From contig JAZJZK010000059.1 in the NCBI GenBank assembly GCA_040389905.1, forward strand, positions 1-62,192: 62,192 bases of DNA, given 5' to 3'. Of this stretch, positions 47,690 through 62,192 are shown one piece after another. The stretch comes from Gemmatimonadota bacterium (GTDB taxonomy: Bacteria; Gemmatimonadota; Gemmatimonadetes; Gemmatimonadales; Gemmatimonadaceae). The notes under the pieces were generated by a model. That model saw only the letters and a program-made list of their open reading frames with translations. It was not told where the DNA came from and searched no databases. Made by a program: the position numbers and the translations under genes. Within the stretch, counting starts at the first letter, position 1. Each line of letters begins with the position of its first letter.

Positions 47690-50600
47690 ATGATCCGTCG
47701 AATCGCCATTCTCTCGCTGGCGCTCGCGAGCGCCGTCGGTGCTCAGGGCACTCGCCTGCTCCGTCATCCGTCGATCCGTGGCAATACCATCGCGTTCGCA
47801 TACGCCGGCGACCTCTGGAGCACAACGCGCGACGGCGGTACAGCACGGCGCATCACCGCAACGCCGGAGGCGGAAAGCGAACCGGTCCTCTCGCCAGATG
47901 GATCGATGCTGGCGTTCAGCCGCAGCGCCAACGGCAACGTCGATGTCTACGTCGTGCCGACCAGCGGCGGAGAAGCGCGACGGCTCACGTGGCATCCCTC
48001 CACCGACCGCGTGCGTGGCTGGACGCTCGATGGCAAGCGCATCGTCTTCATGACGACGCGCAACAACGCCCCGTCGGCAGCGTACGCGCGATTGTGGACG
48101 GTGTCGGTGGACGGTGGCAACGAGGATGCGCTCCCGCTTCCACGCGCCTTCGACGCGTCCTATTCGCCAGACGGCAAGCGCCTCGCCTACCAGGAAATCT
48201 CGCAGACGTTCATTCCCGACTGGTACGAGAACAGCTATTGGCGCAACTATCGCGGCGGCCGCACACAGCCAGTTCGCATCTTCGACTTTGCGTCGCGCGA
48301 GATGCAGATGCTGCCATGGAACAACTCGAACGACGCCAACCCCATGTGGGTCGGCAACTCGATCTACTTCATCTCCGATCGCAACAACCGGCCCAACCTC
48401 TTCAGTTACGACGTGCAATCGAAGCAGGTGAAGCAGATCACGAAGCACGACGTCGACGTCATGAACGCATCCGCCGACGGTGATGCGATCGCGTACGAGC
48501 AGAACGGATACATCCACGTCCTGGACGCGAAGTCCGGCCAGAGCAAGCAGCTGAGTGTGAATGTTGTCGGTGAATTCCCGTGGGCCCAGCCGCAATTCAA
48601 GAAGGTCGCGGCGCTGATTCGCGACGCGGCGTTGTCCCCAACCGGCGTGCGGGTCGCATTCGAGGCGCGCGGCGACATCTACAGCGTCCCCGCCGAGAAG
48701 GGTGACTGGCGCGCGCTCACGCGTTCGTCGGGCGCAAATGAGCATAGCCCCGCCTGGTCGCCCGACGGGCGTGAAGTCGCGTGGCTCTCGGATTCCGGTG
48801 GCACGCACACCCTCATGATCGGCGACCAGCTGGGTACCACAAAGCCGAAATCGATCGCGCTCCCCGGCAATGGTGCGGCGTATTTCACCGAGTTGCACTG
48901 GGCACCCACGGGCAAGCAGTTGACGGTCCTCGACAATCATCTCACGCTGTGGCTCGTCGATCCCGCCACTGCAAAGACGACGCGTATCGATTCCGACCTC
49001 TTCGAGACACCCGGCCGGACGATCGACGCAAGCTGGTCGCCCGATTCACGCTGGGTCACATACTCCAAGAGCCTCGAGAGCCATCTGCGCGCCGTGTTCG
49101 CGTATTCGATCGCGGAGGGCAAGTCATACCAGGTCACGGATGGTCTCGCCGACGCGAGCTCACCCACGTTCGATGCCGGTGGCAAGTATCTCTACTTCCT
49201 CGCGAGCACCGACTACGGTCCGCGCACGAGCTGGTTGGAGATGAGTTCCGTCGACCGGCCGGTGCGGCGAGCGATCTATGTGGTTGTGCTCAGCGCAGCC
49301 GATCCCTCGCCACTGTTGCCGGAGATGGGCGATGAAGGCGAAGCGCCTGCGGTACCGGCATCAGGGGCCGGCCGCGCGCGTACGGATACGACAGCAATCC
49401 GCATCGACATTCCGAATATCGCGCAACGCGTGCTGAGCCTGCCCGTCCCCGCCGGTGACTACTCGCAACTCGGCGCCGGGCCCGCAGGATCCGTGCTCTA
49501 TCTCGATCCCACCGGCGCCGCATCACCGGCGGCTGGGTTGAAACTGATGCGGATGCAACTGCGCGAGCGCGCGCCGGCCGCAATGCTGGAAGGCGTTCGC
49601 GCATACAGCGTCTCGGCAGACCACAAGAAGTTGCTGTACCAGGCCGCGGGTGGTGCGCCGCGCTGGGGTGTCGTCACGTTCGACCGCCCGGCAACTGTCG
49701 GCGTCGGCCTCGTGAACGTCGCGGCGCTCGAGGCGTGGATCGACCCGCACGTCGAATGGGCCGAGATCCTCCGCGAGGCGTGGCGCACGCAGCGCGAGTT
49801 TTTCTATGACGCGAAGATGCACGGCGCCGATTGGGCTGCCGTGTGGGCGAAGTACAGCCCACTCCTCCCCTATGTGAATCACCGCGCCGACCTCACCTAC
49901 GTGACGGCACAGATGGGCGGAGAACTCGGTGTTGGGCATTCGTACATCGCCGGCCGCGGCGATGAGCCGAGTGAAACACCTGTGAACGTCGGCTTGCTCG
50001 GCGCCGATTATCGCGTCGAGAACGGACGCTATCGCATCAGCCACATCTACTCGGGCGAGAACTGGAACCCCGAGTTGCGCGCGCCGCTCAGCGCGCCCGG
50101 GATCCGCGTCGCGGAGGGCGACTACATCCTCGAGGTGAACGGACGTCCGCTCGCGTCTCCCACGAACGTCTACTCTGTCTTCGAACAGACGGCGGGGCGT
50201 CAGACGACCTTGCGATTGAACTCGACACCGGCGATGGAGGGTTCGCGTCTCGTTACCGTGGTTCCAATTCCGAACGAGGATGCTCTTCGCACGCGCGCGT
50301 GGGTGGAAGCCAATCGCCGGAAGGTCGACTCGCTGTCGGGAGGAAAGCTCGCGTATGTCTGGCTTCCAAACACCGGCGCCGGCGGATACACGTACTTCAC
50401 GCGCTACTTCTACGCGCAACAGGATAAGCCGGGCGCGATTATCGACGAGCGATACAACCAGGGCGGTATGGTCGCCGACTACATCGCCAATGAGCTCGAG
50501 CGAAAGCAGATGGGGTTCTTCGCGCTACGGAATGGCGCGACATGGACGTCGCCCGCGGCAGGTATCTACGGACCGAAAGTGATGCTCGTGAATGAGTCTG

Positions 50601-50950
50601 CCGGTTCCGGCGGCGATGCGCTTCCGTACATGTTCAAGCAGCGGAAGACCGGCGTGATCGTTGGCACGCGCACGTGGGGTGCGCTCGTCGGTACCCTTGG
50701 CATTCCGCCGACGATCGATGGCGGCGGTGTGACTGCTCCATCGTTGGCATTCTACGACATGAATGGAAAGTGGAGTGTCGAGAACGAAGGCGTTACGCCG
50801 GATGTCGAAGTGGAGTACACGCCGGCGGAGGTCATCGCGGGCCGAGATCCACAACTCGAGCGTGCAGTGCAGGAGGCGCTCAAGCAATTGGCGCAGTCTC
50901 CCGTAAAGCGCGTGCCGCGGCCGGCGCCGATCGATCGGGTTCATCCCTAA
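47690..50950 (+). CDS. Tricorn-like S41 protease
   Basis: Signal peptide; PD40 propeller repeats (SPDG); PDZ; IDERYNQGG, AGSGGD catalytic Ser, GTRTWG, ENEGVTPD. Confidence 0.95.
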   Translation: MIRRIAILSLALASAVGAQGTRLLRHPSIRGNTIAFAYAGDLWSTTRDGGTARRITATPEAESEPVLSPDGSMLAFSRSANGNVDVYVVPTSGGEARRLTWHPSTDRVRGWTLDGKRIVFMTTRNNAPSAAYARLWTVSVDGGNEDALPLPRAFDASYSPDGKRLAYQEISQTFIPDWYENSYWRNYRGGRTQPVRIFDFASREMQMLPWNNSNDANPMWVGNSIYFISDRNNRPNLFSYDVQSKQVKQITKHDVDVMNASADGDAIAYEQNGYIHVLDAKSGQSKQLSVNVVGEFPWAQPQFKKVAALIRDAALSPTGVRVAFEARGDIYSVPAEKGDWRALTRSSGANEHSPAWSPDGREVAWLSDSGGTHTLMIGDQLGTTKPKSIALPGNGAAYFTELHWAPTGKQLTVLDNHLTLWLVDPATAKTTRIDSDLFETPGRTIDASWSPDSRWVTYSKSLESHLRAVFAYSIAEGKSYQVTDGLADASSPTFDAGGKYLYFLASTDYGPRTSWLEMSSVDRPVRRAIYVVVLSAADPSPLLPEMGDEGEAPAVPASGAGRARTDTTAIRIDIPNIAQRVLSLPVPAGDYSQLGAGPAGSVLYLDPTGAASPAAGLKLMRMQLRERAPAAMLEGVRAYSVSADHKKLLYQAAGGAPRWGVVTFDRPATVGVGLVNVAALEAWIDPHVEWAEILREAWRTQREFFYDAKMHGADWAAVWAKYSPLLPYVNHRADLTYVTAQMGGELGVGHSYIAGRGDEPSETPVNVGLLGADYRVENGRYRISHIYSGENWNPELRAPLSAPGIRVAEGDYILEVNGRPLASPTNVYSVFEQTAGRQTTLRLNSTPAMEGSRLVTVVPIPNEDALRTRAWVEANRRKVDSLSGGKLAYVWLPNTGAGGYTYFTRYFYAQQDKPGAIIDERYNQGGMVADYIANELERKQMGFFALRNGATWTSPAAGIYGPKVMLVNESAGSGGDALPYMFKQRKTGVIVGTRTWGALVGTLGIPPTIDGGGVTAPSLAFYDMNGKWSVENEGVTPDVEVEYTPAEVIAGRDPQLERAVQEALKQLAQSPVKRVPRPAPIDRVHP

Positions 50951-51040
50951 GAAGCACCTCTTTGCCGGACTAAGCGATGTCTTCCCGTACGAGCCGCGTA
51001 GCGAGTGAGTGCGGGATGACCGCCACCCTTACTCACTGCT

Positions 51041-51231
51041 CGATCGGCGACGTCGGCGCGATCGGCATGGCGCGGTGGCTGGCGAGCCTGCTCGACGACG
51101 TGAGTCCGACCGATTCCGTCGTGCTGGTGGCGATGCCCCTCGGATTGGCGGCGGTGGCGCTCGCGACGTGCTACCTGCCCGCTCGGCGAGCGGCGGGGAG
51201 CGATCCGCTGACGGTGCTGCGCCGGGACTGA
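51041..51231 (+). pseudogene. Inverted 3' end of an ABC (MacB/FtsX-type) permease
   Basis: IGDVGAIGMARWLASLL..VSPTD..CYLPARRAA..DPLTVLR, the typical permease C-terminus; continues the minus-strand fragment in frame if flipped. Confidence 0.8.
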
Positions 51232-51250
51232 GTCGAATTCACCAGAGGGA

Positions 51251-51880
51251 CGACGTCGCCGATCGCCACACCAAGCCCCGCCAGCACGGCACGTTCGCCC
51301 AGTATCAGGCGAATGAGTCTCCTTGGCTCGGCGCCTACGGCGAGCCGGATGCCAACCTCACGGCCGCGATTCGCGACGTGAAGTGACATGACGCCATAAA
51401 TCCCGACGACCGCCAGAATCAATCCGACGAGGGCGAAGCCGCCAAGCAGGAGCTTCGTGAGCCGCCGCGTCGCGAATGTGCGATCGACGATGGTCGAGAG
51501 ACTCTGTACATCATCGAGCGGAATCGACGGCTCCATCTCGGTGCTCGCACGACGTGTGTTGGCGATCACGCCCGCCCATGGGCCGCTCGTGCGCGACGCG
51601 AGTGACAACGGATTGCCACCGGCCTGAGGAAGGCTGAAGTACATGTGCGGCCAGGGCGCTTCTGCCGCGTCTCCGTCACGCAAAGCGCCAACGACACCGA
51701 TGATCGAGAACCATTGCTGGTTGCCCGTATTGCGAACCTGCTTGCCGATCGCCTTCGCTCCCTTCCAGTATCGGTTCGCGAATGTCGCGTCCACCAATGA
51801 CGACGTTCACACTCGCCGAGTCATCGCCAGCAACAAAATCGCGTCCCGCAAGCAGCGGAATGCTGAGAGTATTGAAGTAC
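51251..51880 (-). pseudogene. Internal fragment of an ABC (MacB/FtsX-type) permease
   Basis: YFNTLSIPLLAGRDF...(frameshift ~51797)...VDATFANRYW, VGIYGVMS, REVGIRLAVGA; 5' part missing, starts at an attC. Confidence 0.85.
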
Positions 51881-51966
51881 GCCCCAGCTAAGCTGCGAAC
51901 GCATCACATAAATGCGAGCGAACCGAGCTACCGACGATCGCTCGTCAGCTTCAGCGCACGTTATTT
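51874..51966 (-). other. attC site (distal; HicAB cassette), non-canonical R'
   Basis: Minus: AAATAAC..gctGaagctgAcgagcg ... cgttcgcagcttagc..GTACTTC; two unpaired bases. Confidence 0.75.
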
Positions 51967-51974
51967 GCAAGTGA

Positions 51975-52196
51975 CTATGCGGCCAGAAAGTCTTCAGCGA
52001 AGACGCCGATGTCCCGGCAGATCTGGCGCAAGAGAATCGGTGAGATGTCGCGTCCTCCGTGCATCGGCACCGTCGTGGCGCGGCCATCCGGATGACGGAA
52101 CTGCTTGTGAGACCCACGCTGCCGGACCTCGACGAACCCGAGCCGTTCAAGGCGCGCGACGACCTCACGCGGCTTGAGCACCGGCAGCGAACCCAT
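51975..52196 (-). CDS. hicA: HicA-family toxin
   Basis: [28 protein letters not shown]. Confidence 0.93.
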
Positions 52197-52406
52197 TCAG
52201 GCAACGCGAACCGTCTGGGTCCCAACGAACTCGGCTTCGAGGTGCGGCTCACCGTCCTCGAGGAGCATGGCCACAACCTCTGCGAGGTTGGCCTGCAATT
52301 CTTCCATGCTCTCGCCCTGGCTATGCGCGCCGCGAAAGCCCGGAATATGGCCCACGAGCAACCCAGTCTCCGTGTCCCGCTCGACCACTGCTGTATATGA
52401 CCGCAT
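52197..52406 (-). CDS. hicB: HicB-family antitoxin (short form)
   Basis: GGAGG RBS; VGHIPGFRGAHSQGESMEE. Confidence 0.9.
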   Translation of the reverse strand: MRSYTAVVERDTETGLLVGHIPGFRGAHSQGESMEELQANLAEVVAMLLEDGEPHLEAEFVGTQTVRVA

Positions 52407-52624
52407 GCTGACCCTCCAGTGCAGAGATTCTGATTTGAAGATAGGGACGGTCCGCCATGGTGGATAGCTACGCGAGCAGGGACGAACGCGGGCGCTCAGC
52501 AATGATGCGTGCCGAGGATGCACGCTGACGGCGGCGTTCCCAGTTCGAGGGGAGTGTTGCAATGATCCGGCGACACGAGCATCGCAGTTGTCGTGCACTG
52601 TCCTGTCATCGACAGCTTGTTGCC

Positions 52625-52694
52625 ATATAACGTCTTTGGCCATCAGCCGCGAGCGCCGCTGCGGCGAACGCCGGCTGCATGGCCTTGCTGGCAT
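52625..52694 (-). other. attC site with degenerate R''
   Basis: Minus: TGCCAGC aaggccatGcagccg ... cggctgatggcc aaagac GTTATAT. Confidence 0.7.
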
Positions 52695-52921
52695 GTCACA
52701 CTATCCGACGATCAAGCCCGCGTCTTCCTGGCGCCAGCGATTCTGTCGGGGCCGCGCACACCGACGGGCAATCGGCGGAACGGGCCGCGATCAACAGCAT
52801 CTGGCCTTTGTGGGTCTTCAGGAAGTCGAGTGCGTAGCAGCGTGTTGGCGGAAAGGAGTTGTGCGTTTGCGATCCGCGGTCGACGGTCAACGATTTCTCC
52901 CGGCCGACTAAACTGCGCCGG

Positions 52922-53686
52922 TTAACCCGGCCCCGTCTTGCTGCCGATCACGTAGCCAAATTGAATCGATCCAAACGTGATCACGGTTAGCAGGTATGAG
53001 ACGATTCCCTGGACGCACCGCGCATCGACGCCGGCATCGCGCAGGGTGGCGGCGTATTGTCTGGTGTGGCGCGCGTCCACGATCAGCACATGTCCGCCGG
53101 AATTAAGCACGCGCGCGATCTCGCGCACGGCGGTTTGCCGCTCGCCGGCGTTGTAGATGTTGTGCAACGCCATGCTCGAGAGGACGACGTTGAAGCTGGC
53201 GTCGTCGAAAGGCAGCTTGCGTGCATCACCGGTGTGCACCTCGACCTTGTCGGCCACGCCTTCGATCATCGCGTTGTTGAGTGTCCCCGCAGCGTTGTTG
53301 CCGCTAAGATCTTCTTGCTGCCATTTGTCGATCCCGACCGCGCGGCCGGTGGAGAGCCGCTTGGCGGCGCCGATCAGAAACAAGCCGAGACCGCACCCCA
53401 CATCCAGCACGCGCTCATCACCCCGCCAGGCAATCTTGTCGAGGTATTCTTCGCGCTCGCGCGCCTTGCCGATCTTGCTGTCGTAAAGCATCCACAGGCC
53501 CATCGCGCCGCTGCCCAGGCCGGCCCCGATCAATGGCCGCGCGATCGCCGCGATGAGGTCTTCCCTTGACCACACGCCGAGCAGCCGCGTGATCAGCGAG
53601 ATCACTCCCAGCGCTGCCACGATGAACAGGTTGCGCACCGCCAGCGGCGCGTCGATGCCGTAGTTGGGGGCGGGATTGCGTTTCAT
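52922..53686 (-). CDS. Class I SAM-dependent methyltransferase with N-terminal TM helices
   Basis: YGIDAP; VLDVGCGLG; GDARKLPF; SSMALHNI. Confidence 0.9.
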   Translation of the reverse strand: MKRNPAPNYGIDAPLAVRNLFIVAALGVISLITRLLGVWSREDLIAAIARPLIGAGLGSGAMGLWMLYDSKIGKAREREEYLDKIAWRGDERVLDVGCGLGLFLIGAAKRLSTGRAVGIDKWQQEDLSGNNAAGTLNNAMIEGVADKVEVHTGDARKLPFDDASFNVVLSSMALHNIYNAGERQTAVREIARVLNSGGHVLIVDARHTRQYAATLRDAGVDARCVQGIVSYLLTVITFGSIQFGYVIGSKTGPG

Positions 53687-53747
53687 TCAGCGGCAAAACC
53701 TAATACTTGTTTGCTCACGACGCCACCACATGCCGGGGCGCTGACCA

Positions 53748-53842
53748 AACCAACGCCAAAGTGCACTTGCAAGGGAATCAAACAAATGCGAGCGCAGCGC
53801 GCTACCGAAGCTCCTTTGACAAGTGCAACGCCTCGTTAGAAT
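53748..53842 (-). other. attC site (DUF2971 cassette)
   Basis: Minus: ATTCTAAC..gtTgcacttgTcaaagga ... tcccttgcaagtgcac..GTTGGTT. Confidence 0.85.
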
Positions 53843-53857
53843 GCACGGCGGGAGACA

Positions 53858-54634
53858 CTATCCCTCAGACTGGATTTCTACTCCGAAATGATGCGTCGCT
53901 AGGTGCGCTCGCTTCACGGCAACTGAAGGTACGCGCGCCTGCGCCCATTGGGCGAGGGTGGCTTGAGTGGACGTGGTCATCCGAGCCCCAAATATGACGG
54001 CAGTGAGGCACTCAGGCGGAAACGCTTTCACGCCCTGTCCCCAGATAATAAGCCTCCATTCTTGCTCATATGACCAAGGCGTTGCCTTCGTCAGGAATGT
54101 CGGACGAAAGGTATCATCACCAGAATGCGTGATCGGCCTAGGTACGGGATACTCGCTCTGGTAATGGACCGCATGCGCTTCCCCGATAGCGGCGGCCAGT
54201 TGCGAACGGTCGAACTCTAGGCACACGCCTGTGTGCGAGTGCGCATAGTGACCCCACATGAGAATGTCGTCGGGGCATGCAGACATGCAGCAAAGGCCAA
54301 TGTCTACGTCAAACCGGCGGTCGATGTTCTGAGCCACATTCGCCTCCCGGATCTGCCGATCTGAAACGACGCGCTCAACTATCTCCTTACGCTGGTTGGC
54401 GGTGAGCCCGGGCTCCTTCGCTACGGTCTTCGTGGCGTAGGCGCGTATTTGCTCCCGAGTGCCATCGAGCGAAAGGCGCGGCCGACAATCGAAGGGATCA
54501 TTGAACGCCGTGCGAGCAGCAAAGAACAACTCATGGTGCAAGATAGTACGCTCGGCGTACTTCAGGCGCTCGCCTGCAAGGCTCGCGTATTTGTAGAGAT
54601 GGCGCGGCTCGTTGTCAGCTGTGGGAGCTGCCAT
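53858..54634 (-). CDS. DUF2971-domain protein
   Basis: LYKY, FNDPFD, LMWGHYA..HTGVCLEF, TK...WSYEQEWR; GGAG RBS before MAAPT. Confidence 0.88.
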   Translation of the reverse strand: MAAPTADNEPRHLYKYASLAGERLKYAERTILHHELFFAARTAFNDPFDCRPRLSLDGTREQIRAYATKTVAKEPGLTANQRKEIVERVVSDRQIREANVAQNIDRRFDVDIGLCCMSACPDDILMWGHYAHSHTGVCLEFDRSQLAAAIGEAHAVHYQSEYPVPRPITHSGDDTFRPTFLTKATPWSYEQEWRLIIWGQGVKAFPPECLTAVIFGARMTTSTQATLAQWAQARVPSVAVKRAHLATHHFGVEIQSEG

Positions 54635-54656
54635 CCGGACTCCGTGGGATGAGTGC

Positions 54657-54748
54657 ATTCTACGCCCAAGCTCAGCTGCGGGCGAGTTCATAAAGCGAGC
54701 GAAGCGAGCCATCATTGAATCGCCCGACTGCTGCAACGCATGTTATTC
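54657..54748 (-). other. attC site (HEPN cassette), R' missing one T
   Basis: Minus: GAATAAC (contains the gene stop)..gttGcagcagTcgggcga ... tcgcccgcagctgagc..GTAGAAT. Confidence 0.8.
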
Positions 54749-55852
54749 AGCAGCTTGGCGCTCCAGGGCTGAACCGAGGTCGGCGGGCGCAGCGAACGGT
54801 ATGATGCGACCGAACATGCCCCAGACTGTGCGCCACAGCATCGTTGTTCGGTCATTTAGGACAATTAACTGCTCGGGATCTTCCGCATCAATGAACCCGT
54901 GAGCGATAGCATTGCGAAAGCGTGATAGGCTCATGCTGCGCGGCTGCGCATAGAAGACCTCATTGATATAGAGGCTGGCCGCGGGGCCGAAACACACCTC
55001 CAATGCATGCTTGGCTCTGACGGAGAATGCAGGATCTGCTACCGAATGATATAGGTGTCTGACCTGCGCCAACGTGAGACGTCCGTTGCTGCCGCGCAGA
55101 TACTCGTCAATGGCTGCTTGCTTGGCGGCATCGTTGGTGCGGGCCAGAGGGCGTATGAGTAACACCGCGTCAATGAGGCACTCGAATGCGTTCCAGTAGG
55201 CCGCAAACGTGCGGACTGTGTCGTCTCGCGAAACCTCATTCATGAGGTTTCTGGACTCTCTAATCCAATAGAGCGCCGTGGCAACCTTGCGCTGAATATT
55301 CAGCGGCAACGTAGCGAATGCACTGACGGTCGGCGCGACGTCATGTGCATCGAGCGCCACCAATGTGCCACCGCCGCGAAGATGTGTGATCCAACACCAC
55401 CAACGCACAGGATTGTTGCCCCAATCCGCTAGTGTCAGTATGCCGCAAACTACGTTTGCTCGCGCAATCGCGTCAGACACTCCAGCGACGGTGCGTTCGC
55501 TGATGGTAATGGTGCCCTTGAGGGTAGTTCGGGCGTTCAGATCGATTGAATTGGAGGACCGCAGAACCTGTTCCTGGGAAATAGAGATTCCAAGGGTCGG
55601 ATAGTTCAGTGAAGTCGACGGAGCCTCGAAGTCTCCGTATACGAGAATGTGCAGCCGATCTTCCCATTCGGCGGGCCAGCTCAGCAGACGCTGCTCGAGG
55701 GCCGCAACGCCCCACGCATGACTCCAAGACAGGCCACTCGATTGGAGCGCTTTGGCGCGAACGAACACATCGTCCGCCTGAGCATCGTCAGTTGCCACGA
55801 GGAGTTTCGGAAGGGGCTGTGGTCCTAAAGATGCGCTGCTGTTGTGTGGCAC
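54743..55852 (-). CDS. Hypothetical protein with C-terminal HEPN-like motif
   Basis: YWNAFECL and RNAIAH (R-x4-H) motifs; start uncertain. Confidence 0.7.
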   Translation of the reverse strand: MPHNSSASLGPQPLPKLLVATDDAQADDVFVRAKALQSSGLSWSHAWGVAALEQRLLSWPAEWEDRLHILVYGDFEAPSTSLNYPTLGISISQEQVLRSSNSIDLNARTTLKGTITISERTVAGVSDAIARANVVCGILTLADWGNNPVRWWCWITHLRGGGTLVALDAHDVAPTVSAFATLPLNIQRKVATALYWIRESRNLMNEVSRDDTVRTFAAYWNAFECLIDAVLLIRPLARTNDAAKQAAIDEYLRGSNGRLTLAQVRHLYHSVADPAFSVRAKHALEVCFGPAASLYINEVFYAQPRSMSLSRFRNAIAHGFIDAEDPEQLIVLNDRTTMLWRTVWGMFGRIIPFAAPADLGSALERQAAE

Positions 55853-55942
55853 ACCGTGATATATGGCGTCCGGCGAGAGGCCGTCCCGACGAGGATGCCG
55901 GATGCGAGCGCAGCTCTCGGGCGCGCGCCATCGCCGTTCAGG

Positions 55943-56284
55943 CTAGACATCATGCGCGCGCGCCTCGACCTGTCTTTCAAGCTCGTCGGGATCACGGTGC
56001 TGATCGAGGCACCCGAGAACGTGAACCGCTCCCGGGATGACCACGTAGTAGATGCTGTACGGGAAACGCGGAATGAGCGCGCGCCGCACGGGCGGATCGA
56101 GTTGATCGAAGACGATCCGACGAGCTTGCGGCCAGCGCCGGACCGACTTCAGGCACGCATCGATCGCACGGATCAGTTTGACGCCGAGTCCGGCTCGCTG
56201 GCCGGCGTACCACCCAACGGCTGCGTCCATGTCGGCCTCGGCCTCCTCGTGGATGATGAGGGCAGCCCGCCGTCCGCGTGTCAC
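55943..56284 (-). CDS. RelE/ParE-family toxin
   Basis: EAEADM..AVGWY..QRAGLG, RRALIPRFPYSIYY; GTGA overlap with antitoxin. Confidence 0.85.
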   Translation of the reverse strand: MTRGRRAALIIHEEAEADMDAAVGWYAGQRAGLGVKLIRAIDACLKSVRRWPQARRIVFDQLDPPVRRALIPRFPYSIYYVVIPGAVHVLGCLDQHRDPDELERQVEARAHDV

Positions 56285-56550
56285 AACCGACGACGGCGTT
56301 TCACAGAGCGTTTCGTCGGCTCGCCCGCCGCCGCCCGGGCGAGCAGCCGATCCTTCACTTCCTCCCATGGCGTCCCTGCGGCGGGATCCGCTAGATACGC
56401 AGCGTGTCGGCGCGTGATCTCAGTCTCGTGGGTCGAGGGCACGGGCAGGTCGTCCTGGTGCTTCAGGGCGATACTGTCCCAGAGATCAACGGCCAGTTGA
56501 GCGCGTTGGCTGGGCGTGAGGTGGCTGAAGTCGAAGAGCGGGTGCGCCAT
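56281..56550 (-). CDS. Addiction-module antitoxin component
   Basis: LTPSQRAQLAVDLWDSI...EITRR..AY..DP..GTPWEEVK. Confidence 0.85.
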   Translation of the reverse strand: MAHPLFDFSHLTPSQRAQLAVDLWDSIALKHQDDLPVPSTHETEITRRHAAYLADPAAGTPWEEVKDRLLARAAAGEPTKRSVKRRRRL

Positions 56551-56744
56551 CTCTGAAGAATGTCGACCGTAGCCGGACGGGGCAAGCGACGGCGTGTCTG
56601 GGCGAACAATTGGCGGTCCCGGGCGGTTCCGGGACACGAGAGTCGCCGTTCAGGTGGATCGCAACGCGTGCAGGACCGACAGTGCCTTGGCGAGCGGCAC
56701 TCGGCACCATGAGCTATGCGAACACCTCAGATTGGTAGATGTCT

Positions 56745-57287
56745 ATCCGCCAGAAGTCGCGCAACAGGGTGAGGGCGGCGGTCGGCAGGGGAACGAGGCG
56801 ATCTTTCCCACCCTTGCCGCCGCGGATATGGAGCAACTGGCGCGCGCCGTCAATCGCCGGCACCCTGCAGCCGCAGCCCCTCGAGCAGCCGGAGGCCGCA
56901 GGTATGGAGGAGGGTCAGGCAGACGCGGTACGGACGCATGCGCACGGCCGCCAGCACGCGCTGCACTTCCTCTTGGCTCAGGACGACGGGGAGCCGTGCC
57001 TCGCGTTTCGGGCGCGCAACGTCGAGGACCGTCCACTGCCAGCCGAGCGTTTCCTGATAGAAGAACTTCAACCCGCACAGTGTCTGCGTAAAACTGCTCG
57101 CGGCAATCCGGCGCACGGTACTGAGATGCAGCAGGTAATCGCGCAGCTGCTCTTCCGTCAGCCGGTCAGGGGAGATCCCATAGAACTTGGCCAACTGCGA
57201 GACCGCGAGCAGGTACGCCTTGATCGTGGGCTCGGCATAGCCACGGAGCTGCAGGTCCTCGGTCATCCGGCGGCGAAGGGCTGTCAA
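56745..57287 (-). pseudogene. Tyrosine recombinase remnant (SAM-like N-domain), of the type paired with IS91-family transposases
   Basis: LRRRMTEDLQLRGY..TIKAY, LPVVLSQEEV, CGLRLLE; frameshift ~56860; GKGGKDRLVPL; similarity stops at LRDFWR, so no HxxR or Tyr. Confidence 0.8.
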
Positions 57288-57405
57288 ACCATCCTCTCGG
57301 AAAAGGGTCGAGAGGACCAGACAGCGCAACTCTCCCGCGGGCAATCACCTGAGGGTGGGGCGCGACGATCCTAATCGCTCCGCCTATCCGCCGCAGGCAG
57401 ATTGA

Positions 57406-57462
57406 GTTCAACAGCAGATTCTGCCGTGGCTTCGCGCGGCAAGAATCTCTGTATCGTTAGCT
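57406..57462 (-). other. attC-like site (FAD oxidoreductase cassette), right arm shortened
   Basis: Minus: AGCTAAC gatacag agattcTtgccg ... cggcagaatct gct GTTGAAC. Confidence 0.65.
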
Positions 57463-57490
57463 GGCGGCGCAACGAAGCCGAGGAATAGTG

Positions 57491-58678
57491 TCAGACGATG
57501 TGCTTCGCCACTTCGCGAGCGAGATCGAACATGAGGCTGGCCTTACCTGGGAGCGCCACGGTCAAACCCCGGACGCCGTGACCGCCCATGCCCTCATCCT
57601 CGGTGTACACCTTGATATCCACACACGGATGAGAGGCGTTGTATTGCTCGGTCTTGAAACAGGTGCGGGGCGTGAAGCCTGACATGCTGAATGGCCGAAC
57701 CGACGCCGACGCGAAGCACTGGTCCATCTCGGCGTTCAACGCAGCCACGTCGGACGGTGCCGTCCTCAGCGCTTCGAGCGAGCACCCGCGGACACCGTAC
57801 ACGACTCGGAAGTCCGTTCCGGCCGCGAGTATGTGATCGCGGTAGGGCACCAGGGTGAAGTCACCCCGCGTCCCGTCCTCCTTTTCTACATCCAGCCAGA
57901 CCGTGATCCGGTCAAGGTCCTGCTGCGACTCTCGTATACCGCGCTTGAACGCAACAACCAGGCATTTCTTCCGAATCAGTGGGAGGCTGACGCCGATTCC
58001 CTCGAGGAGCTCGTGCGACCATGCTCCCGCAGCCACGATACACTGATCGCAGGTGAGCGTCCCGCGTCTCCCGTGCCATTCGTAGTCCACGCCAGTCATT
58101 CCGTGCGGCCCGCGGCGCAGGTCCAGTACCCTCGCCCCCTCCATGACCGTACCCGTGGCTTTGATCGCGGGCAGGTGTCTGCTATCCTCGAGTTGTCCGG
58201 CGATATGCCGGCGCATGTCGCGGACGAGTGCCGGAAAATCAACGGCACAGTCCGGAGTAACCCAACCGCCCGAGAAGTTGATGCCAAGCGACGCAAGCCT
58301 CGCCCGGTCGCCGGCCTCCAGAGGGTAGGCATCTGGAACGCGTCGACCGTCGGCCTTCCACTTCGCCCACATATCAGTACGAGCACGGAGGGTGTCGTCG
58401 GTTAGCGCAAGGAAATAGGCCTTCTGTGGGCCGACGAGATACTTCGCCTTGATGTCCCAGTCGATGTTCCGGTGCGTCCATGCCCGCTCAGCCAAACTTT
58501 CGGAGGGGTACAGCAGGCCGCTGTGGAGCCACTTCTGATTGGTGTCGGTGGCGCTCGGGACATCATCGCCGTGGCAGAGTAGGGTGACGCGCTTACCCTC
58601 CTCGGCCAGTCGGTGCGCAATGGCGGCACCCGCGCAGCCACCGACTACTACAACCTGAGGCAGTCGTCCGTCCGTCAT
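57491..58678 (-). CDS. FAD-dependent oxidoreductase (DAO/GlpD-like)
   Basis: VVVVGGCAG, NQKWLHSGLLY, IVAAGAWS; GAGG RBS. Confidence 0.8.
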   Translation of the reverse strand: MTDGRLPQVVVVGGCAGAAIAHRLAEEGKRVTLLCHGDDVPSATDTNQKWLHSGLLYPSESLAERAWTHRNIDWDIKAKYLVGPQKAYFLALTDDTLRARTDMWAKWKADGRRVPDAYPLEAGDRARLASLGINFSGGWVTPDCAVDFPALVRDMRRHIAGQLEDSRHLPAIKATGTVMEGARVLDLRRGPHGMTGVDYEWHGRRGTLTCDQCIVAAGAWSHELLEGIGVSLPLIRKKCLVVAFKRGIRESQQDLDRITVWLDVEKEDGTRGDFTLVPYRDHILAAGTDFRVVYGVRGCSLEALRTAPSDVAALNAEMDQCFASASVRPFSMSGFTPRTCFKTEQYNASHPCVDIKVYTEDEGMGGHGVRGLTVALPGKASLMFDLAREVAKHIV

Positions 58679-58712
58679 TCGCCACCTCTTACTGGAATCA
58701 AAAGGGGACTAT

Positions 58713-58807
58713 GTCCAACGCCGAAGCTCTGCTGCAAGCGACTCAATAAAATGCGAAGCGCAGCGAGCTACCGCAAATCGCTTGACAGCAGCAGCGCACG
58801 TTAAGGC
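58713..58807 (-). other. attC site (zinc-ribbon cassette)
   Basis: Minus: GCCTTAAC..gctGctgctgTcaagcga ... tcgcttgcagcagagc..GTTGGAC; canonical extrahelical G and T. Confidence 0.88.
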
Positions 58808-58828
58808 GCAGGCGCACAACTGGCCGCA

Positions 58829-59239
58829 CTATGCCTTCCCGTCGCCGCGCTCGACCTCGACTCCCGTTAGGCCAATCGTCAACCGTCGTATGCCCCCCAC
58901 CTTACTCAGTATGCGACGCAGATTCCTGGTGAAGCCGCATGTACGACACTCGACGTGCGCTACGAATGCAAAAGAGCCGTTCGTTTGCTCCAGTGAGCGC
59001 ACGCGATATCGGAACCACTTGAACGCGCATTGTGGGCAAGGGAGCGACGGATACTGAACAGGTATCTCGCGTCGGGCGACGTCAAATATCGTTCCGCAAT
59101 TCGCGCAATGTCCGTGGATACACTGTACGACCTTCGCCTTCCCCTCGACTTCCCAAGAGTCTTCACCGGCAGTGAACTTTGTAAGCACCACAGCCTCGCG
59201 CGCCCGTACGTCATCGAGTCCGCAACTAGGGCATTGCAT
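58829..59239 (-). CDS. Hypothetical protein with four CxxC motifs (double zinc ribbon)
   Basis: CPSC, CANC, CPQC, CRTC in 136 aa; bounded by attC sites. Confidence 0.7.
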   Translation of the reverse strand: MQCPSCGLDDVRAREAVVLTKFTAGEDSWEVEGKAKVVQCIHGHCANCGTIFDVARREIPVQYPSLPCPQCAFKWFRYRVRSLEQTNGSFAFVAHVECRTCGFTRNLRRILSKVGGIRRLTIGLTGVEVERGDGKA

Positions 59240-59344
59240 CAACGGTCCAGGACCGCTCTGCGATAGCGGAGCAGCGACCGGGGGTCTGGTGAGGGAGCGC
59301 TTGGGAGTCAATGCAAGTGTCCTTCGATGAGATAGGTGTTGTCG

Positions 59345-59363
59345 GCCTAACGCATAAGTTGAG
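59345..59363 (-). other. R' half of an attC site interrupted by the IS
   Basis: Minus: ctcaacttatgc GTTAGGC; GTTAGGC nearly complements R'' GCCTTAAC at 58800-58807. Confidence 0.65.
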
Positions 59364-59464
59364 TTGGTATGAAGCGGCTGGACCTCCGCGGTCCCGTGGT
59401 GGCAACGTACGCCCCACACACTTTACACGCGGTCGGTGCCGCACAACCAACCGGGAGGCCAGCC

Positions 59465-60491
59465 ATGGATAGCATAGGGATCGACCTGCACAAACGCGAG
59501 AGCCAACTGTGTATCCTCACGGCGGACGGTGAGCTGATCGAACGCCGCATCGTGACCAGTCGCGAGCGGTTCACGGCCGTCTTGGGCGAGCGGCCGCCGG
59601 CGCGCATTCTGCTCGAGGCTGCGACGGAGAGTGAGTGGGTCGCCCGCCATCTCGAATCGCTCGGCCATACGGTGATCGTCGTGGACCCGAGCTTTGCCGC
59701 GATGTACGCTACGCGCTCCAAGCGGGTGAAGACGGACAAGCGTGACGCGCGCACGTTGTACGAGGCGCTACAACTCGGCGCGTATCGCGCGATCCATCGC
59801 GCGTCGGATGCGCAACGCCAGGTCCGCGCGCAGCTCGCGGTACGCGATGCGTTGGTGCGGACGCGCACGACGGTACGTGGCGATCATCAAGGCGTCCGTG
59901 CGCCGCGAAGGACTGCGGATTCCCAGCGGCGACGCCGAACACACCGTGACCAGGCTCCTCGCGTTACCGTTACCCGCCCACGTGTTCGAGGCGCTCGCCC
60001 CGTTTGATCGCGCTGTGGGGGCGCTCCAAACCGAGTTGGAGGCCGCCGACGAGCGGCTCAGCGCGTTGGCCACGGCGAATACCGCGATCACGCGGTTGCG
60101 CACGATGCCGAGCATCGGCCCCGTGACGGCGCTGGCGTTTGTGGCATCGCTTGACGACGTGGAGCGCTTTCACAGCGCGCACCAGGTGCAGGAGTATCTA
60201 GGATTGGTGCCAAGTGAGTATAGCTCGGGCGACCGACGACTCCGCGGGCGGATCACGAAACGCGGCGATGCGCGGATGCGGTGGCTGTTGGTCGAGGCGG
60301 CGTGGCGCATTCTCCGCTCGCCGAATCCGGAGCTCGCCGCGCTGAAGGCGTGGGGCCAACAGATTGCAGAGCGCCGTGGCAAGCGCATCGCCACGGTCGC
60401 CGTCGCGCGACGCGTGGCGGGCATTCTCTACGCGATGTGGCGGGACGACGTTGATTACGCGGCGAGCACAGTGCGCGCGGTGGCTGCCTAA
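59465..60491 (+). pseudogene. IS110-family transposase with a +1 frameshift near 59870
   Basis: GIDLHK, LLEA, KTDKRDA (DEDD); PSIGPVTA, YLGLVP.EYSSG, ITKRGD, AVARR; removing one A joins the two frames. Confidence 0.88.
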
Positions 60492-60760
60492 CGCGCACCG
60501 ACCGCACGCACCACTCCGCCGACCGAGTATCGGGGTGACTGACCTGGGCACGCGCTGAGCGCGACGCAGCTCATGGCCGCTATCGAGACCGAAGTTTAGT
60601 TGAGCGCCGCCGTGTCCAATCCGTATACCCATCTGCGCCGGCGAGGCATTCCCTCGCTTCCACATCGAGCGCGAACAGAAGACTGAGCAGCATCTCGCGA
60701 TCTCAGGTCGGCATCACATCACCACGGCGCTCGTTCTTACGACGGGGCTTGACATCGCAC
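60492..60760 (+). ncRNA. Putative bridge/seek RNA region of the IS1111-type element
   Basis: ~270-nt non-coding stretch between transposase stop and right IR, with short matches to the target and to the IS end. Confidence 0.5.
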
Positions 60761-60958
60761 GCCGCTTCACAGAAGAAGTGCTGGCAAGCCAACAAGGGTT
60801 CGCTGCGGACGCCGACGGTCTTCTGCACCGCGGAGCCGGGAGGTGTGCGCCGCGGGACGCGCACTCGTATCCAATGGGGCACAGGCGCGTTGCTCGTGTT
60901 GCTCCCAGGTCTCAAGTCTCATATTATGAGCCACCTAATGAAGGGACATGGAGCCTCG

Positions 60959-62077
60959 ATGCGTACGCTCGCAATTACATCTCTCGTCGTCGTCCTGGCA
61001 GCGTCCGGCGGGTTCATCACCTCGGCTGCGGCGCAGGCGTACACCATCCGAGACCTTGGAACGATTGGCCCGGGCATCACCTCAGGTCAGGCGATCAACA
61101 GCGCTGGACAGGTCGCTGGTGTGTTCTTCCCCCCAGCGCCCACGGTAAACGCATTCGGCTTTCTCTTTAATGGCACCGCAACAACCCTGCTCGGGATTCC
61201 TGCTGGCGGATACACCATCAGCGACGCCTATGCCATCAACAACGCGGGGCAAACCGCCGGATACGTCGTTTCGCCGGTTTTGCCGATTGAACGCCAGGGG
61301 TTCTTGAACAGCGGCGGTGCTTGGACCTTGCTCGGCACACTCGGTGGACGAGCCTCGACCGCGACGGGCATCAACGACCTCGCGCAAGTCGTCGGCGGCT
61401 CCTACACGGCAGGAGACGCTGCTTTCCATCCGTTTCTGTACGGTGCGGGCGGAATGTTGGATCTTGGTAGTCTGGGAGGCTTCGAGAGTGCCGCGTCTGA
61501 CATCAACAACCTGGGGCAGGTGGTCGGATACAGCCAACTCGTAGGCGATGCTGTGTTTCACGCATTCCTCAACGAGAGCGGCATCATGACCGACCTCGGG
61601 ACACTCGGAGGCGGCAACAGCCGCGCAACTAGCATCACCGACTCGGGGCTGATCACGGGCTTTAGCGACGTCATCGGGGGCGCCGCAACGCACGCCTTCG
61701 TCTACGGCGGCGGAACTATGCAGGACATTGGATCTCTTGGTGGCAACTTTTCTTCAGGTTTCGGCATCAACAGCAGCGGCCAGGTAGCCGGCTGGAGCAA
61801 TCTCGCCGGCAACACAGTCTTTCACGGCTTCCTCTACAGCGGGGGCGTCATGACGGATCTGAATGACTTGCTCCCTGACGATTCCGAGTGGGAGCTCGAG
61901 GTTGCGTACGGGATCAACGACGCTGGCCAGATGACGGGCTCCGGCCTCATCGGCGGGGAGCGACACGCGTTCCTGCTCACGTCGGAAGCTGTCCCGGAGC
62001 CCGGGACGTTTGGGTTGATCGGACTTGGCCTCGGCTTTCTCGCACTCGGCTGGCGCCGCAGGCCGTCTGCGACGTGA
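60959..62077 (+). CDS. HAF-repeat extracellular protein with PEP-CTERM sorting signal
   Basis: Signal peptide; repeated DLGTLGG..S.A..IN..GQVVG and HAF; VPEPGT-TM-RRR C-terminus. Confidence 0.92.
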   Translation: MRTLAITSLVVVLAASGGFITSAAAQAYTIRDLGTIGPGITSGQAINSAGQVAGVFFPPAPTVNAFGFLFNGTATTLLGIPAGGYTISDAYAINNAGQTAGYVVSPVLPIERQGFLNSGGAWTLLGTLGGRASTATGINDLAQVVGGSYTAGDAAFHPFLYGAGGMLDLGSLGGFESAASDINNLGQVVGYSQLVGDAVFHAFLNESGIMTDLGTLGGGNSRATSITDSGLITGFSDVIGGAATHAFVYGGGTMQDIGSLGGNFSSGFGINSSGQVAGWSNLAGNTVFHGFLYSGGVMTDLNDLLPDDSEWELEVAYGINDAGQMTGSGLIGGERHAFLLTSEAVPEPGTFGLIGLGLGFLALGWRRRPSAT

Positions 62078-62192
62078 CGGGCACGGTGGCGCGGAGGTGG
62101 CACGGTTGCCGATCAGTGAACTCTGAGGTGCTTTCGGTCTCCTAAGAAACTACTGCCTCGATGACCTCGCCGGACGCGAGATCGACGAGACC

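Follow-up and report, generated by a model that had tools for sequence, protein, structure and literature searches.

The window, by which we mean the whole stretch of 62,192 nucleotides that was analysed, carries an array of gene cassettes with hairpin-forming attC sites on its minus strand (51.8-59.4 kb), and an insertion sequence (IS) of the IS110 family lies inside one of these sites (Table 1). The attC boxes are referred to as R', L', L'' and R'' according to the standard nomenclature. The array genes include HicA, DUF2971, a methyltransferase and an addiction module. One toxin-antitoxin-like cassette (window 51975-52412, -) holds HicA with a probable HicB partner, and a second (window 55943-56552, -) an addiction-module antitoxin with a small neighbour. 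A truncated and frameshifted tyrosine recombinase (Phage_int_SAM_4; 56750-57344, -) is also found within the array, and its score is far under the integron integrase cut-off. No match to the integron integrase profile TIGR02249 above cut-off was found in the genome (G000, 84.6% complete), and the array is not classed as a complete integron. Further attC sites are present on contigs C15, C26, C31, C42 and C53 of G000, and two short remnants of related IS copies were detected on C42 (2252-2427) and C15 (52077-52176). Directly right of the IS, beyond the array, a HAF-repeat PEP-CTERM protein is encoded (window 60961-62077, +).

Table 1. Features of the invaded attC site, the inserted element and its predicted RNA (window coordinates).
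Feature	Position	Strand	Description	Basis
Uninterrupted attC	54657..54748	-	target site AAGCTC/AGCTGCG at 54668, 2 mismatches	
Next uninterrupted attC of the array	58713..58806	-		hairpin and end boxes
Gene cassette after the invaded attC	58829..59239	-	zinc-ribbon-like ORF, start codon uncertain	weak TIGR02605 match, below cut-off
Surviving half of the invaded attC	59345..59361	-	R' box GTTAGGC (59351-59345), spacer, L' start	sequence
IS1111-type element	59362..60773	+	1412 bp	homologue junctions and 7/3 extension rule
IS left end	59362..59378	+	7-nt extension AGTTGGT, subterminal IR ATGAAGCGGC at 59369-59378	homologue junctions
DEDD transposase/recombinase pseudogene	59465..60491	+	~341 codons in intact relatives	profile matches, alignment to relatives
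Predicted bridge/seekRNA	60530..60702	+	target-binding loop, then donor-binding loop	consensus fold
Right-target guide	60565..60573	+	CGCAGCTCA, complementary to T-G-AG-CTGCG of the target top strand	covariation
Left-target guide	60592..60599	+	AAGTTTAG; flank AAGTTG, one mismatch at -1; ends in the donor-end AG	
Candidate handshake guide	60600..60602	+	TT(G), putatively matching the IS left end past AG	
Candidate right-donor guide	60629..60634	+	CCATCT, 5/6 complement of AGTTGG; weak, variable	
Left-donor guide	60675..60681	+	ACAGA+AG, matches the right IS end	
Candidate -35 of a circle-junction promoter	60749..60754	+	TTGACA	fixed spacing to right end
IS right end	60761..60773	+	subterminal IR GCCGCTTCAC (9/10 match), 3-nt extension AGA	
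Right flank unlike attC continuation	60774..60790	+	begins AGAAGTGC	contiguous with the IS in X1 contig

The element and its broken transposase

A preliminary description of this DNA had placed the start of an IS1111-type element 10-12 nt from an attC R' box. An IS110-family transposase element was confirmed to begin 10 nt after this box, and the positions of all the short sequences quoted in the description were confirmed as well. The IS is read on the bottom strand of the attC (R' box gcctaac, 59345-59351), and the element is antisense to the cassette array, as in the IS1111-attC group. The same R'-spacer-L' context is present in homologues and in empty attC sites of the genome. Under the 7/3 extension rule the element runs from 59362 to 60773, the right end having earlier been put at 60775. 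Extensions of 7 bp (left) and 3 bp (right) have been described for IS1111 in the accessible text of PMC11187229, and extensions of these lengths lie outside the subterminal inverted repeats (IRs) of the window IS. The IR itself spans 10 bp with one mismatch, the usual length in IS1111 being 11-13 bp. The non-coding DNA is likewise distributed as in IS1111-type elements, with a long region of 282 nt 3' of the transposase stop and only 103 nt 5' of the start.

The transposase is read in two overlapping frames, which carry PF01548 (IS110 N-terminal) and PF02371 (C-terminal); NF033542 also matches. The DEDD and SG motif residues are retained despite the broken frame, and the combination of a RuvC-like N-terminus with PF02371 is that of the IS110/IS1111 superfamily. 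Identity to two IS1111 references is 28-31% over the full length, and is weaker to an IS110-type protein; the transposase tree holds three references. The closest homologue, locus L002, shares 87.7% DNA identity with the window IS across the full length and 89% at the amino acid level. Relative to L002 the transposase carries three indels, at 59870 (+1), 60004 (+1) and 60021 (-1), where a single frameshift had previously been reported. Relatives in sequencing runs X2 and X5 are free of them (for the indel at 60004 this was seen in X5 only), and Logan assembly contigs of run X1, probably built from the same reads, are identical to the window with zero differences, right junction included. Since the indels are missing from relatives and yet reproduced in the X1 contigs, the window copy is a pseudogene.

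Close to the right end, TTGAC(A), which corresponds to the standard -35 consensus, was spaced 19 nt from the end in 94 of 94 distinct ends, with a search pattern that permitted a 9-nt range. A search for the -10 box of this candidate promoter returned none that was convincing. A conserved leader starting from an ATG inside the left IR was rejected for this clade, because it is in frame without a stop in 8/52 cases only.

At the other side of the element the attC does not continue. From the other attC sites, the sequence TGAGCTGC had been predicted to follow the insertion; it is intact in L002, but the right flank of the window differs, agreeing with its own guide at 4/7 positions. Elements scoring 5/7 or less are few (7/97, the window among them). 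Searches of the genome, of the fetched loci and of 54 genomes from the same genus returned no homologue of this flank. Because the expected CTGC is absent and no homologue was found, the other half of the attC must be regarded as missing, and a later deletion or an off-target join is the probable cause. One could also suppose that no complete attC ever surrounded this copy, which would have inserted off target at a site matching its left guide only, or that the junction is an assembly chimera. The poor match of the right flank and the absence of an attC far end would fit such an origin. However, on the left a regular R'-spacer-L' start is present and leads into the cassette array, mismatched right flanks are rare among the 97 elements, and the X1 assembly crosses the junction without differences, even if it probably derives from the same reads. 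We therefore find this origin unlikely. The segment at 60782-60810 (+), which reads GCCAAC-AAGGG-TTCGCTGC, resembles the degenerate R''-L'' start of an oppositely oriented attC, whose far end was not found.

Sampling of homologues

Homologues were drawn from three sources: 12 loci from 61 genomes (the window's own included), 120 of an estimated 350 metagenome stretches, chosen by a donor-loop motif, and 80 genome loci, the best out of 401, among which the closest titled relatives are Gemmatimonadaceae. The motif was carried by 168 loci, of which 144 could be parsed and 138 were kept, after six misparsed rows had been dropped and two re-parsed by rule. For the covariation counts, duplicates were collapsed on sequence and the window was counted as one row. 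As kin are not independent, guides were also compared in non-overlapping pairs on a transposase tree. In this tree the three references sit on long branches, and the root, placed on L227, is unreliable owing to its long branch.

A two-loop consensus fold of the predicted RNA with unpaired guides

The consensus fold was derived from 51 RNAs sharing no more than 90% identity, after 9 of the 60 representatives had been set aside for their longer or irregular loops. It consists of two stem-internal-loop-hairpin units in which every guide is unpaired. In this alignment 95.5% of the cells are paired and two-sided change is seen at 9 of the 26 pairs, which none of 500 shuffles equalled. The compensatory changes fall mostly within the target loop; the stems of the donor loop are nearly invariant and hence uninformative. 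Folded alone, the window RNA is no more stable than shuffled sequences (z=0.45), so the single-sequence fold was rejected as support. Its minimum-energy structure pairs GCTCA with 60554-60560 and buries the right-target guide, a pairing that the preliminary description had put forward as a competing one. Of 30 distinct guide contexts just 1 allows such a pairing, and it is shared by L002, both flanks of which are correct. Opening both guides of the window RNA costs 6.2 kcal/mol; a heavily constrained fold (-38.9 kcal/mol) was discarded, since forcing the alignment pairs overstates this cost. It had been argued that guides lying in stems would speak against the proposal, and in the alignment fold they were unpaired.

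An RNA model built from the alignment gave 130 bits on the window, which belonged to the training set, and matched 7 of 151 genomes of the phylum, G000 included. One genome harbours three related copies, with an attC-type left flank beside each. An Rfam scan of window 48000-62192 gave zero matches.

Guides and flanks change together

The segment GCAGCTCA, proposed earlier as the guide for the right side of the target, occupies an unpaired conserved loop and covaries with the right flank. The right-target slot agreed with this flank at 6.57 of 7 positions against 5.07 in shuffled pairings (n=97, 0/5000), the best of three registers being taken for data and shuffles alike. On the tree, 20 of 21 contrasts were concordant, none was discordant and one was a tie, although these contrasts are biased upward because the register was picked with each element's own flank. 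The left side required correction. The segment first proposed, AGTTGAGC, scored 1.71 of 5 against 1.86 shuffled (n=58); its last two letters are in a stem, and the AGTTG that it contains matches the IS's own left end. The correct slot lies at 60592-60599: its first six positions (homologous to 60592-60597) matched the left flank at 4.66 of 6 against 2.42 shuffled (n=58, 0/5000), and of 25 tree contrasts 16 were concordant, 3 discordant and 6 ties. In sister pairs, single-base differences in the guides follow the flanks. Four elements (L081, L164, L190 and L230) have AAGCTGC-type guides and a right flank one letter shorter (AGCTGC), possibly through a one-base loss or a register slip upon insertion.

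In the second loop ACAGAAG, whose match to the right IS end had been noted earlier, is also unpaired and conserved and covaries, as the donor guide, with that end. Agreement was found in 117 of 118 cases (111 ACAGA and 6 jointly changed to AGAGA), in a set that was partly selected on this motif. The letters that follow the guides were examined as candidate handshake positions. Those in the target loop matched positions 3-4 of the left end at 1.76 of 2 against 1.35 shuffled (n=58), with 3 of 14 tree contrasts informative, and the first letter after the donor guide agreed with the next base of the target at 0.65 versus 0.44 (n=74). In the window copy the corresponding donor-loop letters, AC, mismatch the target CT.

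From the ACAGAAG match an AG core had been deduced. Among 60 elements whose left end begins with AG (68 rows in all), the right flank starts with AG in 33, AA in 23, GG in 3 and AT in 1; the AG count at the left junction is partly built in, because the left-end pattern of the close set required AG. Where branches have left ends starting with GA or AA, the left-target guide differs accordingly in its two final letters. We conclude that AG belongs to the left end of the IS and is not a required target core.

The chance of a single 7-8-mer match in the shuffled non-coding region is 0.002-0.011. Single matches of this length are weak alone, and the case for the guides is carried by covariation. 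The target predicted from the guides, the 13-mer AAGTTGAGCTGCG, has 4 exact matches in the 5.08-Mb genome, against 0.19 expected under a Markov model. All four lie in attC-like contexts (on C26, C31, C42 and C53), three of them with a recognisable far end. With one mismatch there are 8 sites, and among the 6 listed 1 is an attC.

Relation to known attC-targeting elements

SeekRNAs matching attC have been purified for ISKpn4 and ISPst6 and predicted for ISPa25, according to the accessible text of PMC11187229, so that RNA-guided attC targeting is not in itself a new idea. With the IS1111-attC group (ISKpn4, ISPst6, ISPa25 and ISPa21) this clade shares the DEDD transposase, an RNA in the 3' non-coding region, the 7/3 extensions, antisense insertion into attC and the order of the guides. 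The guide complementary to the top strand (60565-60573 in the window) comes first and that for the bottom strand (60592-60599) second, an order characteristic of IS1111. The point of insertion is different. The clade inserts in L', 9-12 nt from R', whereas members of the group insert near the 5' end of attC, between R'' and L''. Targets such as GGCTTGAA/CGAATTGTTAG are given for the latter in the parts available of PMC13604230 (Table 1) and PMC3001079, and we saw the L''/R'' insertion directly for ISPa21 on NZ_CP041734.1 (locus L223).

The question arises whether the clade is a divergent member of this group that inherited its attC targeting instead of gaining it separately, and the identical antisense orientation, 3' RNA and guide order would agree with that. 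Against it, transposase identity to ISPa21 is 30.6%, near the 28.6% found with an unrelated reference element that we take to be IS4321-like, and ISPa21, the only member of the group that was aligned, clusters with this reference and not with the clade. The subterminal IRs differ from those of ISPa21, and opposite ends of attC are used. The RNA model matched 39 of 39 more divergent loci of the clade and 0 of 3 reference IS loci, L223 among those without a match. Moreover, members that do not target attC lie between the attC clade and the references, of which there are three, on long branches. Unlike the known IS1111-attC members, the clade is centred on Gemmatimonadota hosts and contains several retargeted sub-branches. 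Inheritance from the group is thus improbable. The element works like the IS1111-attC elements and is not a member of their group by the criteria tested; attC targeting was probably reached by a separate lineage that uses the opposite end of the site.

Three motifs typical of the clade were absent from the ISfinder protein set in the portion of the PMC11187229 source data that was available. A tblastn search of plasmids gave matches that were all below 60% identity, with no named attC element among the best 40 of 193. In the open full-text literature nothing was found on this clade or on handshake positions in IS1111; Tetu & Holmes 2008 and Post & Hall 2009 could mention L'-side insertions.

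As far as the accessible parts of PMC11208160, PMC11208158 and PMC13626964 describe it, IS621 has in common with the clade two internal loops, a two-base core and candidate handshake letters adjoining it. Unlike IS621 as described there, the clade has its RNA 3' of the gene, with the guides in reverse order, longer IRs and a target core that need not equal the donor core. The IS621 protein (8wt6) matches the clade profile distantly (E 1e-24). In the accessible text of PMC11187229, the pairs ISEc11/ISXne4 and ISEc21/ISMch6 show that guides change with targets among close relatives, as they do here; in contrast to these pairs, the clade provides dozens of guide/target pairs in at least five target classes.

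Targets other than attC

Both flanks were available for 46 elements, of which 23 passed a strict attC rule; visual inspection adds about 9 that are attC-like, and the remainder are not. Judged by guide pattern, 60 of 89 tree tips (the mislabelled L183 having been removed) aim at the L' of attC. Nested within the attC clade are sub-branches retargeted to a tRNA-Pro(GGG) anticodon loop, to GGGAT/AGGAATTT and to other sites, and their guides match the new targets. In the most divergent members, which by record title come from Acidobacteriota, Rokubacteria, Myxococcota and others, the targets are unrelated and the guides again match them. Homologues that keep the window's guides at non-attC sites, which the preliminary description held to be incompatible with its proposal, were not seen; at such sites the guides had changed. 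It could still be argued that the folded single-stranded attC hairpin, or protein-DNA recognition, directs targeting and that the RNA matches are secondary, given that attC hosts most close relatives and that attC bottom strands fold, but close relatives nested in the attC clade hit a tRNA fragment and non-attC sites with matching guides, and one-base guide differences track the flanks between sisters, which makes this very improbable.

The tRNA-Pro(GGG) sub-branch comprises L056, L175, L177, L036, L084, L087, L114, L117 and L121, and its right flanks match the 3' half of the tRNA-Pro(GGG) of the window genome. ARAGORN found no whole tRNA at the insertion points of this class in 15 loci, and the left flanks are not tRNA. 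The combination of tRNA-matching right flanks with non-tRNA left flanks suggests that these elements insert into tRNA fragments, such as the att sites of integrated elements. The GGGAT/AGGAATTTCAATC sub-branch (L023, L050, L062, L134, L187, L199 and L211) has a longer inner hairpin, and its motif is present in one unoccupied copy in the window genome (G000:C50 near 49018, -). L195 and L196 are two tandem copies whose left ends start with AA. They are inserted some 30 nt ahead of a GTTAGG box, which may represent a third insertion point in attC-like repeats.

Discussion

Taken together, we put at about 0.88 the probability that the window holds a broken IS1111-type IS in the L' arm of an attC, and that a two-loop bridge RNA, predicted to be encoded in its tail, likely directed an intact ancestor to this site. 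The proposal of an RNA-programmed, attC-targeting recombinase with readable guides is well supported by the covariation among homologues; the window copy itself is a pseudogene without the right half of its attC.

In the IS110/IS1111 family, as stated in the available text of PMC11187229, PMC11208160 and PMC11208158, the element excises as a circle whose joined ends drive the transposase and the RNA. The complex formed by these two recognises target and donor through pairing with both strands of each, and recombines the two DNAs. For IS621, the accessible parts of PMC11208158 and PMC13626964 describe a core that moves together with the left portion of the top strand, which is exchanged first, and handshake letters that come after the guide on the 3' side. 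In the clade described here the first loop would read the target AAGTTG/AGCTGCG and the second the joined IS ends CACAGA/AGTTGG. As its guides stand in the opposite order to those of IS621, the clade probably has a mirror-image geometry, with the bottom strand exchanged first. The donor AG would then stay at the left junction and the target's own letters at the right one, and the letters after each 3'-side guide, here the left guides, would serve as handshake guides. We give this model of strand exchange roughly even odds. After insertion, the window copy would have decayed and lost the right attC half, probably by deletion, leaving an array without an integrase.

More tentatively, and with the odds somewhat against the whole, the clade may represent an undescribed, Gemmatimonadota-centred lineage of bridge recombinases that came independently to target attC in its L' arm, was later re-aimed several times, uses a mirror-image RNA and inserts at mismatched cores. 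If this is true, a target guide that already carries the donor AG would permit insertion where the central two bases differ, removing the constraint of core identity.

What the clade adds is an extensive, naturally occurring set of guide/target pairs for an RNA of the IS1111 type with both loops readable, so that the strand order, handshake positions and core tolerance of IS1111 become directly testable. The findings suggest that attC was selected on more than one occasion, and at different ends, as a safe place for insertion, and a recombinase tolerant of core mismatches would broaden the sites that can be addressed by bridge editing.
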